From a phage: 52,935 bases of DNA. Of the stretch, positions 7,712 to 33,158 are shown piece after piece. The position numbers were made by a program, and so were the translations under genes. The notes under the pieces were generated by a model that was given only the letters and a program-made list of their open reading frames with translations, was not told where the DNA came from and did no database searches. How positions within the stretch are numbered: position 1 is the stretch's first letter; every line of letters begins with the position of its first letter. The stretch lies in NCBI GenBank assembly GCA_024614105.1, contig GCA_024614105.1_4894.1; one strand, given 5' to 3'.

Positions 7712-10668
7712 TGCACACGATGTTGCTTAAAGACGGATCAGACCATCGAGCTAATGTCGAAAGCCTTATCGAAGGTCACCACCATTTTCTTGAGCGCAAT
7801 ACTGGCAGAACTGACGACGCTACGCGTCAGCATTATATCTTCAACCCAGAAGGAGTAGTGTCGAACAACCGCCATTTTATTGCGCACACCATGATGGAGT
7901 ACCAACCTAACGGTGATGCTCCGTCTGAAAGTCAGTCGCTGCTAATACTCGGCGAAATTCACGCGTACCTTGCTACTAAGGAACAGCGGTACCTTGACAA
8001 AGCAATTGAGTACTTCAATGCTTACGTCAAGTACTATTACGAGGGGGACCCAATCCCTGATACTCCTCGTCGCTGGATCGCTAACTGGCTTTGTAATGGC
8101 AAAGAGCCTGTGCTAGCCAGCTTCCCAATCAACCCTGTTTCACCGACACAAGGCGGCTATAAAAATGTGCCAGTTAAATTTGTTAACGGCAAAGCACAAA
8201 TCCCTCATGGTTCTCCTTTCTGGGGCGAGTACCTGGATGTTGCTACTTGGGCCCACAGGGGGCACATGGCTTGGCCTGCTATTAATGGTGGTGTCCGTGT
8301 TATTAAAAATAAAGTTGACTGGGACGATATTTACAACAATTACCGCATCACTACCATGCCAGCTGACCCGTGGAATCAGTTAGCCTGGATTGACTGGCCG
8401 AGGTATCTGGGTGAACCAAGCTACACTGTGGACTGGTCAGCGGCCGAACCTCCTGTACATCTCATCGAGTATATTGTTGCATGGACCAATAACAAGATTG
8501 GTGTTCTGCCTGGCAAAAATGATGAGCTATGGGGAGGCGAGATTCTTGAGACTGGACTTCCTGACTCTCGCAGAGGTGAGATTCAACTCCGTGACCATAC
8601 TGTCAACGGTGTGTATCTGCTTAACTACGCCGTTAAACTTCCTGTTGAACACGGTGGTTATTTGCTTAAGCGAAATGAAGTATGGCACAACAGACCTGTA
8701 AACGTTCCACTGTACGGCGAGCTTCAGCGGGGTAATGCTGCGGATGCTGAGTTGTGGTTCTGCGACTGCTGCTATATGCTGTGGCGAATTACTAAAGAGC
8801 AAAAGTATTACAACGCTTGGCGAGCTGTCCTGTTTACACTGGAGGAGTATATTGATATTGATAAACAAGACCAGTTCTTCCGTCAAGACTCTCACGCGTC
8901 ATCTCCGTTTACTGATGGCATCTCTTATGATTGGTCTTATCCTGAACTGGCACAAGCTATATATTCACGTGATGAAAATGGTTATATAGTTCTACGTCAG
9001 AACGAAAAAGCTCAATCATCTTTGGAGCAGCAGGCTGTATGGTTTAAGTGTAAGCCAACAGCTAAGATACGTACAGAGGTTGGTGGCAAAGATGATGCTG
9101 GTCAGAATATCAGTGTCAAGGTGGAAATGTACATGAACCGTGAAAAGGTTGACGTTGAGCAAAACATCTATCGTTTTGTCACACAGCTACCTGCTCTTGG
9201 TGCTTCACCTGCTAACTACGACATTCCGTTAAGCGATTTTGTCGCAGGTACTAAGCCAGACGGTTCTGAGTATATCTTAGCTGATATTCGTTCATCCACT
9301 GATTATGGCAACGCCACTATTGCAGTGTCTTACCGTACTGACATACTTGACAACAGACGTGGCAACACTGTCCGTATGACAATACCGGATAGTTCGTCAG
9401 GTGCCATTATAGGCTTTTGGCTACTGGAATCTTCCCAGGCACCTTTAAACTCGCTGACGTATACTTCTACAGGTCCGTTGTGCATCAAAGTAACTGACGC
9501 GCAAGGCTGGAGTTGGATACGTGATTTACCTGCCGCACCAGGCTGGGTAACTCAGCAGATTCGTACGTGGGAGTTCAGACTAGCGTCATACCAGGAAAAC
9601 ACAGGTACACCACCTACCAGCCCACAATTCGGCGAGATTAAGCAGTTCTCGTTTGTACTGCCTGATGGTGTTAATACGTCGACAAGTATTAGCTGGTACT
9701 GTGTGAATGATGTTCCGCCTCGCTATAACTGGCCAATTGGTTATACGATTAAGTACCGTCTTACTTTCTCGGCTGATAACCCGTACACAGCTAAGCTTGG
9801 CGACTGTACTGTGCTGGACTATGAGAATGATAACCTTGCTTACACGCCAGGTGTTATTCCGTTCTCCAACATTTATAACCCTGATTCTAAGCAGTTCGAT
9901 GGTTGGCACGGTATACCTTACCCTGGCTACCAGTATCCGTTTGTCTTTACACATGACGATACTGCAGCAGGTACAATCAGGCTGAACAACATGGTTAACT
10001 TTTTGTACGATTCTCAGCAATGGTACTTTAAGAAGTTTGGTCAGCTAGGTCCTGGTGCATCTGCTTTTATCTGGAACCGTTGGGATAACTTTAAATACGG
10101 TGTACCTGATACGTTTACCATGTATCACTGGGGTAATGGTAGTGCATGGTCAGGTTACCAGCCTCGTGCTTATTTCTCCGCAGCACGTGGATGGTATGAG
10201 CTAGTAAACCGCGGTAAGCCAGTTCCGAGTAAGCTTATTGCTTATGTGGATAACTGGTCAAAATGGTTGCTTGACTTCATGGAAAGGTCAGGAGGTGTGT
10301 CACCTTCTAACTTCCCGCAAGAAGGTGTTGCTCTGCCCGTCCCTTCAGACTTCACAGGTCACATGTGCGGACTGTGGCTTGCTGGTGCAGCTATGTCAGC
10401 CCTTTGTGGGTCAACAGTATCAGGGCTTGATAAGCTGATGGACATGCTTGTCAATGAGCTGGAAGACCATTACGACATAACTGGTATTCCGGGGCATGTA
10501 ATGGATGGTGGTTGGTCACCAGCGTTACGCCTTGAAACTGGTTCAGGACCTGAAAGCAACGCCATGTACTATGGTTTTTACTCTGGCGAAATATTACGAG
10601 GGTTGGGCTTATACCTGCTGTACAAAAACAAAGGGGCTAAAGCAGATATTTATGATTTAGGCCCGTAA
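7711..10668 (+). CDS. large Trp/Tyr-rich virion-associated protein of unknown function
   Basis: 985 aa uninterrupted ORF, RBS GGTGGA; lies between head-completion genes and the Ig-like protein genes; no motif recognised by eye. Confidence 0.55.
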   Translation: MHTMLLKDGSDHRANVESLIEGHHHFLERNTGRTDDATRQHYIFNPEGVVSNNRHFIAHTMMEYQPNGDAPSESQSLLILGEIHAYLATKEQRYLDKAIEYFNAYVKYYYEGDPIPDTPRRWIANWLCNGKEPVLASFPINPVSPTQGGYKNVPVKFVNGKAQIPHGSPFWGEYLDVATWAHRGHMAWPAINGGVRVIKNKVDWDDIYNNYRITTMPADPWNQLAWIDWPRYLGEPSYTVDWSAAEPPVHLIEYIVAWTNNKIGVLPGKNDELWGGEILETGLPDSRRGEIQLRDHTVNGVYLLNYAVKLPVEHGGYLLKRNEVWHNRPVNVPLYGELQRGNAADAELWFCDCCYMLWRITKEQKYYNAWRAVLFTLEEYIDIDKQDQFFRQDSHASSPFTDGISYDWSYPELAQAIYSRDENGYIVLRQNEKAQSSLEQQAVWFKCKPTAKIRTEVGGKDDAGQNISVKVEMYMNREKVDVEQNIYRFVTQLPALGASPANYDIPLSDFVAGTKPDGSEYILADIRSSTDYGNATIAVSYRTDILDNRRGNTVRMTIPDSSSGAIIGFWLLESSQAPLNSLTYTSTGPLCIKVTDAQGWSWIRDLPAAPGWVTQQIRTWEFRLASYQENTGTPPTSPQFGEIKQFSFVLPDGVNTSTSISWYCVNDVPPRYNWPIGYTIKYRLTFSADNPYTAKLGDCTVLDYENDNLAYTPGVIPFSNIYNPDSKQFDGWHGIPYPGYQYPFVFTHDDTAAGTIRLNNMVNFLYDSQQWYFKKFGQLGPGASAFIWNRWDNFKYGVPDTFTMYHWGNGSAWSGYQPRAYFSAARGWYELVNRGKPVPSKLIAYVDNWSKWLLDFMERSGGVSPSNFPQEGVALPVPSDFTGHMCGLWLAGAAMSALCGSTVSGLDKLMDMLVNELEDHYDITGIPGHVMDGGWSPALRLETGSGPESNAMYYGFYSGEILRGLGLYLLYKNKGAKADIYDLGP

Positions 10669-30957: not shown

Positions 30958-31550
30958 TAAAACAGTTCCTTTTGAGCCGGGTTAACGTGTGCGTCGATGA
31001 TGGCCTGGATGTCAGGTGCTTTCCATCCTTCAGGCTTAACAATATCCTGACCAGACTTATGCTTACTGTTGCTTGCATCAGGCTTAGCACGCTCTTTCGC
31101 CATGTTAGCAGTCTGTACCGCATCCCATGCAGCATCAAGCGGCCAGTTGTTGTTTGCACACCAGGTAATCAGGTGGATAATTAACTGGGCCAGACGGTCG
31201 CAATGGGTGTCTTCAGTATCTTTAACGTATACGATAAGACCATCAGCATCGAAGCGGTCCATAAATCCGCATGGCGTGGTTAACAGAATCGGATACTCAA
31301 ATTCGTTGGTGAACCATGCAGTCTGGTCATACAGGTATAACGTACCTGCAGCAATATAAATTAAATCTACAATACCGTCTAAGAATCCAGCTTTGTCGCC
31401 ATCCTTCTTAGCTTGCTTAATTTCTTCCATCTCCTCAATAAGACGGTCGTAGCGAAGCTTGAACTCAGGTTTACCGCCTTGGCTAACAGGCTTGAGGTCA
31501 AACTTCTCATGAAAAGCGGTAACGCCTGCAGCAATTTTACTGAATCGCAT
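30957..31550 (-). CDS. MazG-like nucleoside triphosphate pyrophosphohydrolase
   Basis: 197 aa; EExxE-type motif LIEEMEEIKQ and DGIVDLIY; TAATG coupling to the TS-family gene. Confidence 0.6.
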   Translation of the reverse strand: MRFSKIAAGVTAFHEKFDLKPVSQGGKPEFKLRYDRLIEEMEEIKQAKKDGDKAGFLDGIVDLIYIAAGTLYLYDQTAWFTNEFEYPILLTTPCGFMDRFDADGLIVYVKDTEDTHCDRLAQLIIHLITWCANNNWPLDAAWDAVQTANMAKERAKPDASNSKHKSGQDIVKPEGWKAPDIQAIIDAHVNPAQKELF

Positions 31551-31935
31551 TTCGTAACTCCTTACAAACAGTTTCGATAAACTTACGTTTAATTTCTGTA
31601 GACCAGATAATATGACGAGCCTGTTCTAAAGTGTCCCAACGTTCTTTACCCACAGGAAAGGGAACAATGAAAAGGCCGGTACGGGATATGCGCTTGATAA
31701 ACGGGAATTTACAGCGCATGGTTGTTTCAAACTTGATAAAGTTTGTTTGCACTTCGCGTGTAAACTTGACCTTATCAAATTCATGTTCAAGAGTTTGAGC
31801 AATGTTGCATACTTCCTGGAAAGAAGATGCAGGCAAGTAATCTTCGCGGCCGACTGTGTTCACGTAGTCGATTTGGCCCTCTAGCCGAAGTATCCAAATC
31901 CTGTAATAAGCTTCAGCAACACGTTGTAGGTTCAT
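31537..31935 (-). CDS. hypothetical protein
   Basis: 132 aa; RBS AGAGGAGAG; first gene after promoter at 31962-31990. Confidence 0.45.
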   Translation of the reverse strand: MNLQRVAEAYYRIWILRLEGQIDYVNTVGREDYLPASSFQEVCNIAQTLEHEFDKVKFTREVQTNFIKFETTMRCKFPFIKRISRTGLFIVPFPVGKERWDTLEQARHIIWSTEIKRKFIETVCKELRNAIQ

Positions 31936-31961
31936 TGTATCTCTCCTCTAAAAGATAACTT

Positions 31962-31990
31962 ATTATACCACATCACTCTCTAGTGGTAAA
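31962..31990 (-). promoter_or_regulatory. sigma70-type promoter with CCAC/GTGG dyad in spacer
   Basis: Minus strand: TTTACC (rc of 31985-31990), 17-nt spacer, TATAAT (rc of 31962-31967). Confidence 0.5.
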
Positions 31991-32010
31991 GCACTTTTTA
32001 CGCTTCTGGT

Positions 32011-32046
32011 AAAAATAAAAAGGACCAGCGTTAACTGGTCCTTTTG
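32011..32046. terminator. bidirectional intrinsic terminator
   Basis: AGGACCAG / CTGGTCCT stem flanked by A-run (32011-32020) and T-run. Confidence 0.6.
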
Positions 32047-32274
32047 GCAGGGTGGCGTAAGGAGATACAAGGCATCGTAACTATGCAACCAGGCAGCGCA
32101 TATGAGATTGGCCAAAAGATTTACCATTTTAATCCCCGCGACGAGACGAAAAGGAGGTGTCATCGAGTAGCCAATCACATATGCGTTACTTGCTGTGTGC
32201 TCTCACCGCAGAAAGTATAGAGCGTTGCGCTTATTACACCGATGGAGTGGCAAAAGCACACAGCGAGTACAACC

Positions 32275-32359
32275 TTAGTTGTGGTGTCTTAGCACCTGAG
32301 TTATTGTGGATAACCTGCACCCGACGGGTGTCAAAAAGATACGCCAAAACACCACAACT
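32275..32359. repeat. long-range inverted repeat TAGTTGTGGTG / CACCACAACTA
   Basis: 11-mer at 32276-32286 and its reverse complement at 32348-32358 enclosing about 60 nt. Confidence 0.4.
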
Positions 32360-32382
32360 AAAATTGTGACCGCCGTCTACAC

Positions 32383-32394
32383 CAGGCGCCTGGG
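32383..32394. repeat. perfect 12-bp palindrome CCAGGCGCCTGG
   Basis: Self-complementary dodecamer in the 570-bp noncoding region next to the tRNA-like element. Confidence 0.5.
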
Positions 32395-32421
32395 GTCAAG
32401 GTAGCGAGCCAATACCCTTTT

Positions 32422-32516
32422 TCAGCGTCGGAGGAATCGAACCTCACACATCACGGCTTTTACCAAATCTCGGTCAGCGAGCAGAATTGAACTGCATTCA
32501 CTGGACACCCTCACTG
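32422..32516 (-). tRNA. tRNA-like element (canonical T-arm; cloverleaf not resolved, possibly intron-containing or degenerate)
   Basis: Minus-strand GGTTCGATTCC T-loop motif (rc of 32433-32443) with 4-bp T-stem and a 5/7-paired acceptor candidate; D and anticodon arms could not be built by hand. Confidence 0.3.
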
Positions 32517-32613
32517 TTTCAACACACCAGGCTTAATTGATTGTTGATAAGAAGAGAGATGTAAGGATGTCCATTGAATGCACCTCCGTAGAGGTGCGTT
32601 CAGATCAGCGCTA

Positions 32614-33081
32614 TTATTCAGCAACTTCTTCGTTGTCGCCTTCGATCGCGCCAGCCAGTTTAGCAGCTTCAGCTTTAGCAGCTTCTGCTTTCTGACGAGC
32701 TTTTTCAGCTTTCTCTTCAGCTTTGCGAATCTGCTCAGCAGCTTTCGCTTCGGCTTTTTCAGCTTTGATGCGAGCACGCTCTTCAGCTTTACGCTGTTTT
32801 TCAGCGGCTTTAGCAGCATCGCGTTCTGCTTTAGCGGTATCAACACGCTTAGCCAGAACCTTACCAGTGGCTTTACGCCAGTAGGTCAGCTGGGAAGAAA
32901 CAGTACCACGGGACATTTCGGTAGTGGCAACAACTTCGTCCATAACGTCAGAGCTGGACTTGCCTTCTTCATGAGCTTTATCAGCCAGGTCCCATACGTA
33001 ACGCGCACCAGTACCAGCTGCCGGATACAGTACGCCGTTAACTTCTTCTTTACCAGTTACAAAAGTCAGTTTCTCGCTCAT
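32614..33081 (-). CDS. DNA-binding protein with Lys/Ala/Glu-rich repetitive C-terminal tail (histone H1-like)
   Basis: Start at ATG 33081 (MSEKLTF) with RBS GAGGA; C-terminal AEKA/KAEE repeats mirrored by cagcttt DNA repeats. Confidence 0.5.
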   Translation of the reverse strand: MSEKLTFVTGKEEVNGVLYPAAGTGARYVWDLADKAHEEGKSSSDVMDEVVATTEMSRGTVSSQLTYWRKATGKVLAKRVDTAKAERDAAKAAEKQRKAEERARIKAEKAEAKAAEQIRKAEEKAEKARQKAEAAKAEAAKLAGAIEGDNEEVAE

Positions 33082-33129
33082 AATTTTTTCCTCGTCTACA
33101 GGGCTTAATGTTTGTTCGTTACGTGAGTT

Positions 33130-33158
33130 AATATACGTCATTTAAAAGAGTGTGTAAA
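33130..33158 (-). promoter_or_regulatory. sigma70-type promoter (TTTACA-N17-TATATT)
   Basis: Minus strand -35 = rc of 33153-33158, -10 = rc of 33130-33135. Confidence 0.45.

Follow-up and report, generated by a model that had tools for sequence, protein, structure and literature searches.

Introduction

Does the tRNA-like T-arm that lies in a noncoding gap of a phage genome belong to a tRNA, to the remains of one, or to an RNA of another kind? The question is raised by a phage contig of 52,935 nucleotides (GCA_024614105.1_4894.1, NCBI GenBank assembly GCA_024614105.1), the whole of which is called the window here. Positions 31936-32613 form a gap between two minus-strand genes, the minus strand being the sense strand. 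The original prediction had described this island (from 32047 on) as noncoding, with a T-arm, a palindrome and long-range inverted repeats, and had proposed an intron-containing, long-variable-arm or degenerate tRNA, or else a tRNA-derived regulatory element. From sequence comparison and covariation we conclude with high confidence that the core of the island is a structured RNA belonging to a large, phage-specific family, the twin T-loop tRNA-like element. Phage tRNA arrays are viewed as a means against defences that cleave tRNAs and against the codon bias of the host. This conserved RNA, made of tRNA parts but not itself a tRNA, is carried by many arrays and also by some phages devoid of tRNA genes.

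A twin T-loop element at the core of the island

A covariance model (R1), built from 24 environmental phage sequences of which none comes from the phage group of the window, was run against the window with filters off. It gives one match (42 bits, E = 1.4e-8), at 32357-32502 on the minus strand (∼ 145 nt for the whole match), and the next best hit in the 52.9 kb scores 10 bits. The relatives S144, SE4, fHy-Eco03 and SE1_KM are matched at 48-49 bits; Erwinia phage SOI901 has no match.

Within the match, the parts follow one another in the order expected of the family, all on the minus strand. T-arm 1 (GCAG-UUCAAUU-CUGC, 32481-32495), which aligns to helix 1 of R1, is followed by the family-invariant UCG (32478-32480) and by UGACCG (32471-32476), the 5' strand of the long-range helix that joins both halves of the element and that we name AS. 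Next come an invariant GAG with the D-loop-like segment AUU-UGGUA-AAA (32458-32468), one pair of whose stem is an A·A mismatch in the window, and T-arm 2 (GAGG-UUCGAUU-CCUC, 32431-32445). The 3' strand of AS, CGGUCA (32367-32372), is placed by R1 99 nt downstream of its partner. Both arms have T-loops of the form G-UUCRANY-C (G-UUCAAUU-C and G-UUCGAUU-C).

T-arm 2 is the T-arm that had first drawn attention to the locus. Its sequence GGTTCGATTCC is indeed unique in the window (32433-32443, minus strand) and is flanked by the 4-bp T-stem described for it, GAGG/CCTC (32442-32445 / 32431-32434). The loop sequence GUUCGAUUC corresponds to tRNA positions G53-C61. Covariation of this stem is seen within the phage group, the window having GAGG/CCUC, S144 and SE4 CUGGG/CCCAG, fHy-Eco03 CCUG/CAGG and L136, an IMG/VR metagenome contig from a distant relative, ACCGG/CCGGU.

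Between T-arm 2 and the 3' strand of AS lies the variable region. By-eye comparison identifies here the hairpin HX (GGGU...ACCC, loop GCUCGCUACC, 32393-32417, minus strand) as an expansion specific to the phage group; its loop motif GCUYCGCUACC is kept, again by eye, while the stem varies (GGGU/ACCC in the window, GGCAGU/ACUGCC in L136, ACCGG/CCGGU in fHy-Eco03). The 12-bp palindrome CCAGGCGCCTGG reported earlier also lies in this region. It is real, unique in the window and never seen in 100 shuffles, but its position had been given one base off and is 32382-32393. In the RNA it belongs to CCAGGCGCCUGG (32380-32393, minus strand), a small hairpin CCAG-GCGC-CUGG whose 3' half overlaps the conserved CUGGUG motif preceding the 3' strand of AS. 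Pairing is still possible in the S144 counterpart, CUGGCGCCGG, and CUGGUG(C/U)A...GGUCA recurs in the unrelated family members L025 and L068. The inverted repeat TAGTTGTGGTG / CACCACAACTA was found as described (32276-32286 / 32350-32360) and is the core of a perfect 18-bp stem (32269-32286 / 32350-32367), the hairpin BH. The palindrome and the long inverted repeat are hairpins of one RNA region, not separate DNA signals.

Covariation and anatomy of the family

Family elements are ∼ 115-145 nt long and share one order. The 5' part consists of (A)AUGC, T-arm 1 (4 bp, loop UUCRANU), the invariant UCG, N, U and the 5' strand of AS. The middle part has an invariant AG, the D-loop-like hairpin or loop AUU-nGGUA-AAU, a short linker and T-arm 2 (5-6 bp, loop UUCGAUU). 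In the 3' part, AS is completed by its 3' strand after a variable region in which a GGU(A) motif usually occurs for the second time. Two types of ending follow. About 40% of members (69/171) continue with UGACAG and a hairpin whose loop is GGAAAGAC and which often lies right against the next tRNA; the remaining ones end in a U-run, a terminator or another hairpin.

The proposed pairing was measured on 24 non-redundant sequences. In the five helices 92.4% of cells are paired, compared with 73.4% after shuffling and 35-45% with slid partners; 16 of the 23 pairs show compensatory changes, and the covariation score of 0.563 (0.195 in shuffles) was reached by none of 500 shuffles. With 81 distinct sequences the figures are 93.1% of cells paired, 18 of 23 pairs compensatory and a score of 0.556 (0.170 in shuffles, again 0/500), in an alignment that was fitted to R1 and hence is biased towards the model, which the alignment of 24 is not. 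T-arm 1 has 99.7% of its cells paired family-wide and compensatory changes in three of its four pairs; the numbers for T-arm 2 and AS are five of six and four of five. Variants of AS retain pairing throughout, as in CUGACCG/CGGUC, UUGAUUG/CAAUC, GUUGUUG/CAACA, UUUACUG/CAGUA, CUAACUG/CAGUU and CUUACCG/CGGUA. The 3-bp stem of the D-loop-like segment has weak support across the family. Unguided folding of the alignment by RNAalifold recovers T-arm 1, T-arm 2 and the 3' hairpin. Extension of AS by UCG/UGA looks plausible by eye; these bases are invariant and hence uninformative, and we did not retain it.

Distribution of the family

The lead to the family came from the best conserved patch of the element, the 17-mer GCTCGCTGACCGAGATT, which matches unrelated IMG/VR contigs exactly, several of the matches adjoining tRNA genes. 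A looser pattern finds 102 IMG/VR stretches and at least 120 metagenome stretches, and only 14 matches in one genome each of 185,579 bacterial and archaeal species. In total the family comprises at least 290 phage and metagenome loci. A 44-nt consensus among cultured phages also matches four Cellulophaga and four Rhizobium phage records; in all seven of these eight that were listed, no feature is annotated underneath the match. In the two that we opened, Cellulophaga phi13:2 and Rhizobium RHph_N38, the element stands directly after a tRNA gene.

This is a common arrangement. Among 171 distinct instances outside the phage group of the window, 51 have a same-strand tRNA ending just upstream, and in 47 of the 51 the spacing is fixed, the tRNA ending 7-8 nt before the G of GUUC. 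A tRNA starts shortly downstream in 21 of the 171, and none has an opposite-strand tRNA nearby. In this respect the suggestion of a tRNA-derived regulatory element is broadly correct: the RNA is tRNA-like and structured, with a canonical T-loop, and its usual home is the phage tRNA array. The gathering-level matches of Rfam on 20 family loci are to the flanking tRNAs only, the element itself never being recognized. Canonical members return nothing relevant at E ≤ 10, and with tmRNA models only T-arm fragments of 15-17 nt match (∼ 10-12 bits). Nor is there a recurring neighbour protein family: the largest cluster holds 18 of 181 instances and the clusters are lineage-specific, making a host partner or a role in cis more likely than a phage-encoded partner.

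The tRNAs beside the element are themselves unusual in places. In one group of IMG/VR contigs (L034, L043, L060, L070 and about 20 other loci) the tRNA just upstream has a 6-nt anticodon loop and is labelled 'tRNA-?(Glu|Gly)(tc)' by ARAGORN. In at least three loci (L034, L060, L064) the downstream tRNA is a 125-nt Rfam tRNA match, far above normal length. A hairpin of the GGAAUAGAC type also precedes the odd tRNA, such that elements alternate with unusual tRNAs in those IMG/VR loci.

The family is almost confined to viruses and absent from Rfam 15. A literature search found no description of a twin T-loop element; it may figure without a name among the 10,006 viral structured-RNA candidates that were catalogued in 2023 (PMC10690425). 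Its cultured carriers, unannotated under the match in the listed records, are Rosemountvirus, Loughboroughvirus and their relatives on Salmonella, E. coli and Klebsiella, as well as the Cellulophaga Baltivirus and the Rhizobium Cyamitesvirus. The family is therefore directly testable in easy hosts, and with two T-loops and several GG loops in ∼ 120 nt it is an inviting subject for RNA structure determination.

Not a tRNA gene and very probably not the remains of one

The tRNA explanations do not withstand inspection. ARAGORN finds no tRNA and no tmRNA in the window. Rfam 15 has nothing at gathering thresholds, tmRNA included, and only chance-level miRNA and snoRNA matches at E ≤ 10; the tRNA model RF00005 has no match in 31800-32800 even at that level. 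For the supposed 3' acceptor we found no partner strand, and no acceptor, D or anticodon arms surround the T-arm, which disposes of the intron-containing, long-variable-arm and degenerate versions. A canonical tRNA gene, including the intron and long-variable-arm types, was accordingly rejected: neither ARAGORN nor RF00005 sees a cloverleaf.

Comparison with relatives bears on whether the island could be what a tRNA left behind. Identity over the 800 bases around the island is 94-99.6% with about 45 myophages of Salmonella and Escherichia that belong to Rosemountvirus (BP63, brunost, JEP7 and others), and the window is itself a BP63-like member of that genus. The record GenBank PP583539.1 ('Listeria phage 220426122051', host Listeria monocytogenes) is 99% identical here to the Salmonella Rosemountviruses; a mislabelled host or a contaminated sample is the probable cause. 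The Loughboroughvirus phages (S144, ZCSE2, SE4) have ∼ 83% identity over 80% of the island, and in fHy-Eco03, KE25 and SE1_KM conservation is patchy (∼ 79% over 39-49%). In fHy-Eco03 and SE1_KM the core of the element is nonetheless 93-95% identical, compared with 42-43% for the 132-residue protein encoded next to the island; parts of the noncoding island are thus better conserved than the adjoining coding sequence. A protein-based IMG/VR search for relatives of the phage group yielded one new lineage only, L136, which has no tRNA and a flanking protein only 38% identical and still keeps the element.

The one tRNA-bearing relative among those examined is Erwinia phage SOI901, whose syntenic gap contains true genes, both on the same strand, for tRNA-Gln(UUG) and tRNA-Pro(UGG). 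This intact pair, together with the tRNA-like T-arm sequences, would fit an island that is a tRNA graveyard, its genes decayed once the tRNAs were lost and now devoid of function. By eye, T-arm 1 plus UCGCUGACCG even looks like part of the SOI901 tRNA-Pro, namely its T-arm and 3' acceptor strand, GCAGGUUCGAAUCCUGCAGUGCCGACCA. We nevertheless hold such a graveyard to be highly unlikely. The same non-tRNA architecture, with compensatory changes, at 290 or more loci largely refutes it; the element has also changed less than the proteins flanking it, no tRNA model gives a match even with the threshold at E ≤ 10, and relics would not retain a long-range helix that covaries. Recent horizontal spread of a single sequence is excluded, since the stems differ at most positions. 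Nor would a decaying tRNA pseudogene show the conserved, covarying architecture found in hundreds of phages.

The tRNA pair of SOI901 (L008, 2260-2450) sits between two copies of GAAUGU (…ACAGAATGTAAAT[tRNAs]TTGAATGTGCAG…), and GAAUG is also the 5' leader of the twin T-loop element. On sequence, the repeats look like the junction of an insertion or deletion of the pair.

The island as a sense-strand RNA

The island lies among minus-strand genes for a family A DNA polymerase, a thymidylate synthase, a MazG-like pyrophosphohydrolase and a helicase. Its immediate minus-strand neighbours encode proteins of 175 residues (32614-33141) and 132 residues (31537-31935), neither of which has a Pfam match. 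The 175-residue protein has a long Lys/Ala/Glu-rich, histone-H1-like C-terminal tail; its homologue in fHy-Eco03 is annotated as virion-associated by mass spectrometry, and in phage brunost a repeat_region is annotated within its gene.

An intrinsic terminator closes the island (32008-32045, minus strand; 12-bp stem, 4-nt loop, then UUUUUAUUUUU). The strong terminator claimed for this place is therefore there, at 32018-32045 and followed by T5AT5 on the minus strand, but it is not bidirectional as had been supposed: only four T follow the stem on the plus strand, and the scan calls it on the minus strand only. Stem and T-run are kept in all clades, the stem by compensatory change (GGACCAG.../...CUGGUCC versus GGACCUG.../...CAGGUCC). 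Beyond it, a sigma-70-like promoter for the next gene, 31537-31935 (31962-31990, minus strand; TTTACC-17-TATAAT, extended -10 TG), is annotated as such in BP63 and is near-invariant between clades. Our scan, which was limited to sigma-70-type promoters, found no such site within the island, the nearest upstream one preceding the 175-residue gene. With no internal promoter in the scan and a terminator at the end, the island would most simply be the 3' untranslated portion of a transcription unit of the replication module, one that includes the 175-residue gene.

The 603-nt sense-strand RNA of the island has a computed folding energy of -237.8 kcal/mol (z = -9.3 versus shuffles); for the antisense strand the values are -207.9 kcal/mol and z = -6.0, and the sense strand is thus better by 30 kcal/mol. 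G·U pairs are conserved in the helices of the family element and of the upstream hairpins. U·G pairs would become C·A mismatches on the opposite strand, and their conservation points to an RNA of the sense strand, as does the UNCG tetraloop of the hairpin H1 described below. Predicted folding and conserved wobble pairs together show the island to be built to fold as a sense-strand RNA.

Could it instead encode protein? Some annotators have called short open reading frames (ORFs) here (BP63_58, four CDS in KE24, one in SE4), and short ORFs do exist. That they represent real small proteins is extremely improbable, and the 'hypothetical proteins' recorded in the gap in several GenBank entries are probably false. 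In agreement with the noncoding character first ascribed to the island, it contains short open frames only, none of them conserved in frame and length across clades. Similarity between clades appears in all six frames and shifts from frame to frame, and conservation is therefore at the nucleotide and not the protein level. The longest frame (antisense, 111-124 residues in S144 and SE4) is broken to 43 residues in the window and 21 in fHy-Eco03, and one of the called ORFs crosses both terminator and promoter.

The setting in a replication module (DNA polymerase A, helicase, thymidylate synthase) raises another possibility, that of a DNA-level element, i.e. a replication origin or a protein-binding control region in which the inverted repeats, the palindrome and a 9-mer DnaA box would be the working parts. 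Where BH is most conserved it contains a perfect TTATCCACA, and DnaA-box-like 9-mers (TTATCCACA, at most one mismatch) number 24 in the whole window against 13.8 expected, a count reached by none of 100 shuffles; perfect copies are at 10245, 32305, 33703 and 40243. We consider a DNA element very unlikely all the same. The 680 bp of the island have one perfect DnaA box and one with a single mismatch, no iterons or tandem repeats (direct repeats are chance-level pairs only) and no AT-rich stretch, the GC content of 0.47-0.50 not being below that of the surroundings. The helices keep G·U pairs that are mismatched on the other strand, and the core occurs inside tRNA arrays of unrelated phages.

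Further hairpins of the island

Upstream of the twin T-loop element are two hairpins on the minus strand. H1 (32580-32597), 16 nt after the stop codon of the 175-residue gene, is a 7-bp stem with a UNCG-type tetraloop (GCACCUC-UACG-GAGGUGC). It is present in all eight clade representatives, with UUCG or UACG as the loop, and SOI901 has a compensatory A-U to C-G change. The stem-loop LS (32503-32572) has a 12-bp core, GGACAUCCUUAC / GUGAGGGUGUCC, and can be extended to 22 bp (32561-32582 with 32493-32514), in which form it overlaps the 3' arm of H1. In the eight representatives the LS core has 100% of cells paired and six of 12 pairs changed on both sides; for H1 and LS together 99.3% of cells are paired and seven of 19 pairs are compensatory.

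The LS loop contains a CU-rich tract and the conserved motif GCCUGGUGYGUUG. In the longer form GCCUGGUGYGUUGG (32521-32534) this motif is found in the LS loop of every clade, and a similar CCUGGUG occurs inside the element at 32380-32386. In SOI901 (L008, ∼ 2205-2225) it lies downstream of both tRNAs, in a hairpin inserted into a T-arm-1-like stem. The CU-rich tract AUCUCUCUUCU (32550-32560) is complementary at 10 of 11 positions to AGAGGAGAGAU (31939-31949), the ribosome-binding region of the gene that follows, which lies 600 nt downstream on the far side of the terminator. By eye, the CU-rich loops of relatives (CUCUCC, CUCUCCUUUU) could pair with their own AGGAG sites. The tract could be an anti-Shine-Dalgarno-like regulator or a mere purine/pyrimidine bias.

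UGAAUGCA or UGCAUUCA occurs three times within 32493-32602, and so there are competing structures: a 12-bp form of the first hairpin, the 22-bp LS and T-arm 1. As judged from pairing potential, this could be a folding switch.

Downstream, BH (32269-32367, minus strand; stem 32350-32367 with 32269-32286) begins right after the 3' strand of AS, the site of the GGAAAGAC hairpin in canonical members. It encloses a conserved 63-nt core (32287-32349) with an inner hairpin CACCC-GUC-GGGUG and the 9-mer TTATCCACA (32305-32313). S144 and SE4 retain the stem, in which a single A-U pair has become C-G by compensatory change. In fHy-Eco03 and SE1_KM the core (UUUUUGACA..CC...GG..GCAGGUUAUCCACAAUAAC) lies elsewhere in the island, 5' of T-arm 1, with another closing stem, GCAUUAAGUGUG/CACACUUAAUGC; in Rosemountvirus and Loughboroughvirus it is 3' of the element. 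With a different position and its own closing stem at each, the BH core behaves as a movable module. Two more hairpins complete the minus-strand set. One (32187-32269), with 15-bp arms UACUCGCUGUGUGCU / AGCACACAGCAAGUA that are 93% complementary, forms part of the predicted minimum-energy structure, and both arms are kept in S144 and SE4 with small changes. The other (32090-32192; 23-nt arms, 83% complementary) is mostly an insertion confined to the Rosemountvirus lineage, where all other clades have alignment gaps.

A possible tRNA mimic

What might such an RNA do? We propose that the element is a tRNA mimic handled by host tRNA machinery, a reading for and against which we find the scales evenly weighted. 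In a polycistronic transcript, it would be excised, or retained at the end, by tRNA-maturing enzymes (RNase P, RNase Z/E, 3' exonucleases). Its T-loops would likely be recognized by tRNA-specific enzymes, as they are in the bacterial Y RNA YrlA considered below, and a conserved host partner that binds tRNA would be presented with T-loop and GG-loop surfaces resembling the tRNA elbow. The Rosemountvirus lineage would have kept the element in the absence of neighbouring tRNA genes, and the extra hairpins would enlarge it to a ∼ 570-nt structured RNA ending at the terminator.

Several observations count against reading the element in this way. Family-wide, T-loop positions are 80-100% conserved and GG, U and A of the D-loop-like GGUA 93-100% (81 distinct sequences), but the search pattern fixed the T-loop 1 sequence and the UCG, GAG and GG positions, the invariance of which is thus partly circular; outside the pattern, conservation is still 90-100%, for example at A6, U7, U28, the T-loop 2 bases and the GAAAGA loop. 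A helix closing the 5' and 3' ends into a cloverleaf-like shape seems plausible by eye and was rejected, having 60.8% of cells paired and no covariation. Roughly one instance in two has no tRNA between -400 and +500 nt. The element has no anticodon arm, 7-bp acceptor stem or CCA end, and many tRNA-binding proteins would reject it for that reason. In the window, moreover, the family 3' hairpin (loop GGAAAGAC, preceded by UGACAG) is deleted over 21 positions of the R1 alignment, and an 18-bp hairpin with an unrelated core takes its place; because of this replacement the window copy may work differently from canonical copies.

The serious rival to the tRNA mimic is a role in cis only. The element would then be a tRNA-shaped signal for endonucleolytic processing (RNase P/RNase Z) or a block to 3' exonucleases, fixing and stabilizing the 3' terminus of whichever mRNA or tRNA lies upstream and, in some phages, being itself part of the terminator; we regard this, taken as a whole, as possible though on the doubtful side. 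The position of the window copy in the 3' untranslated region of the 175-residue gene is in keeping with it, there being no predicted internal promoter and a strong terminator at the end, as are the stable UNCG hairpin after the stop codon and the mutually exclusive pairings around UGAAUGCA (H1, extended LS stem, T-arm 1). Elsewhere in the family, the fixed spacing to the 3' end of the upstream tRNA points the same way. Many members without the 3' hairpin have a U-run right after the 3' strand of AS (at least 29 cases, e.g. L010, L025, L093), and others have a canonical terminator there and then a gene start (at least nine, e.g. L054, L101, L106); these are minimum counts, because automated sorting by the sequence after AS is unreliable, a 5-nt partner with G·U allowed being too easily found. 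On the other hand, simple hairpins would suffice for 3'-end protection or termination, and the processing of bacterial tRNA arrays needs no such spacers. An RNA of ∼ 120 nt with ∼ 40 near-invariant unpaired nucleotides, kept in phages of Enterobacteria, Bacteroidota and Rhizobium, suggests specific recognition.

A bolder form of the tRNA mimic can be put forward tentatively, and we think it rather unlikely on the sequence evidence available, at about half the weight of the mimic as a whole. The element would be a new and widespread mimic acting in trans, as a decoy or scaffold. Once host tRNA-processing enzymes had released it from tRNA-array or mRNA transcripts, its two elbow-like surfaces would occupy or redirect host machinery that binds tRNA universally, for example RNase P, the tRNA-elbow contacts of the ribosome, T-loop modification enzymes or a tRNA-directed defence nuclease. 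If so, it would aid the phage in taking over translation or in evading tRNA-targeting immunity.

Comparison with known systems

Small stable RNAs within phage tRNA clusters are known from T4. Like the twin T-loop element, rnaC and rnaD (species 1 and 2 RNAs) are on the same strand right after a tRNA gene, and rnaC has a T-arm and an acceptor-like 3' end. They were rejected as the identity of the element: R1 has no match in the T4 tRNA region (E ≤ 0.01), which shows no twin T-arms and no family motif. T4 rnaD (L117, 2054-2172) begins with AAUGAG right after tRNA-Arg and contains GGGUCGCUACCGGUAAG, which resembles UCGCUGACCG...GGUAAA of the element and the hairpin loop GCUCGCUACC (32401-32410). 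Chance or remote homology may explain this likeness, and the short UCGCUACCGGUAAG stretch shared by rnaD may be fortuitous.

ROOL and GOLLD are large structured noncoding RNAs of phages and prophages reported from tRNA-rich neighbourhoods, and ROOL, at ∼ 580 nt, is near the size of the whole island. Neither has an Rfam match in the window even at E ≤ 10, and the conserved unit here is only ∼ 120 nt, the rest of the island being specific to the phage group. In MALAT1 mascRNA and the RNase P-processed C4/CI RNAs of phages P1 and P4, a tRNA-shaped module within a longer transcript can be recognized by tRNA-processing enzymes. Each of these RNAs forms only one fold of the tRNA-like or cloverleaf type and is unrelated in sequence to the element, and Rfam C4 has no match in the window.

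The nearest described system, which we compared by description only, is YrlA, a bacterial Y RNA and tRNA mimic in which T-arm, acceptor-like stem and D-arm follow in that order (Chen et al., 2014; PMC4201824). Its T-loop is recognized by tRNA-specific enzymes, and YrlA-like RNAs have been reported in phages as well (PMC4201824). Both are structured noncoding RNAs built from tRNA parts (canonical T-arm, GG-containing D-like loop, acceptor-like stem), and the outer part of canonical members has a comparable order, T-arm 1, AS, 3' hairpin, the window copy being without that hairpin. The 3' hairpin loop of the family, GGAAAGAC, is however unlike a D-loop, and the acceptor-like helix of the element encloses an inner domain, with another T-arm and additional GG loops, that has no counterpart in YrlA. 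A long basal stem such as the one by which YrlA binds Ro is not supported here, the closing helix of the element showing no covariation. As to the YrlA motif GNCGAAN0-1G, many members start with CGAAUG, and the GAAUGCA of the window pairs instead with an upstream strand. No TROVE/Ro60 neighbour was found by Pfam among ten proteins of the minus-strand block and one large plus-strand protein, the domains detected being those of replication and nucleotide metabolism, nor does any protein family recur among the neighbours of the 181 instances. Since the comparisons with YrlA, with T4 rnaC and rnaD and with ROOL and GOLLD each fall short, we file the element under the general kind of tRNA-like structured RNAs of phages and bacteria, and not under a named family.

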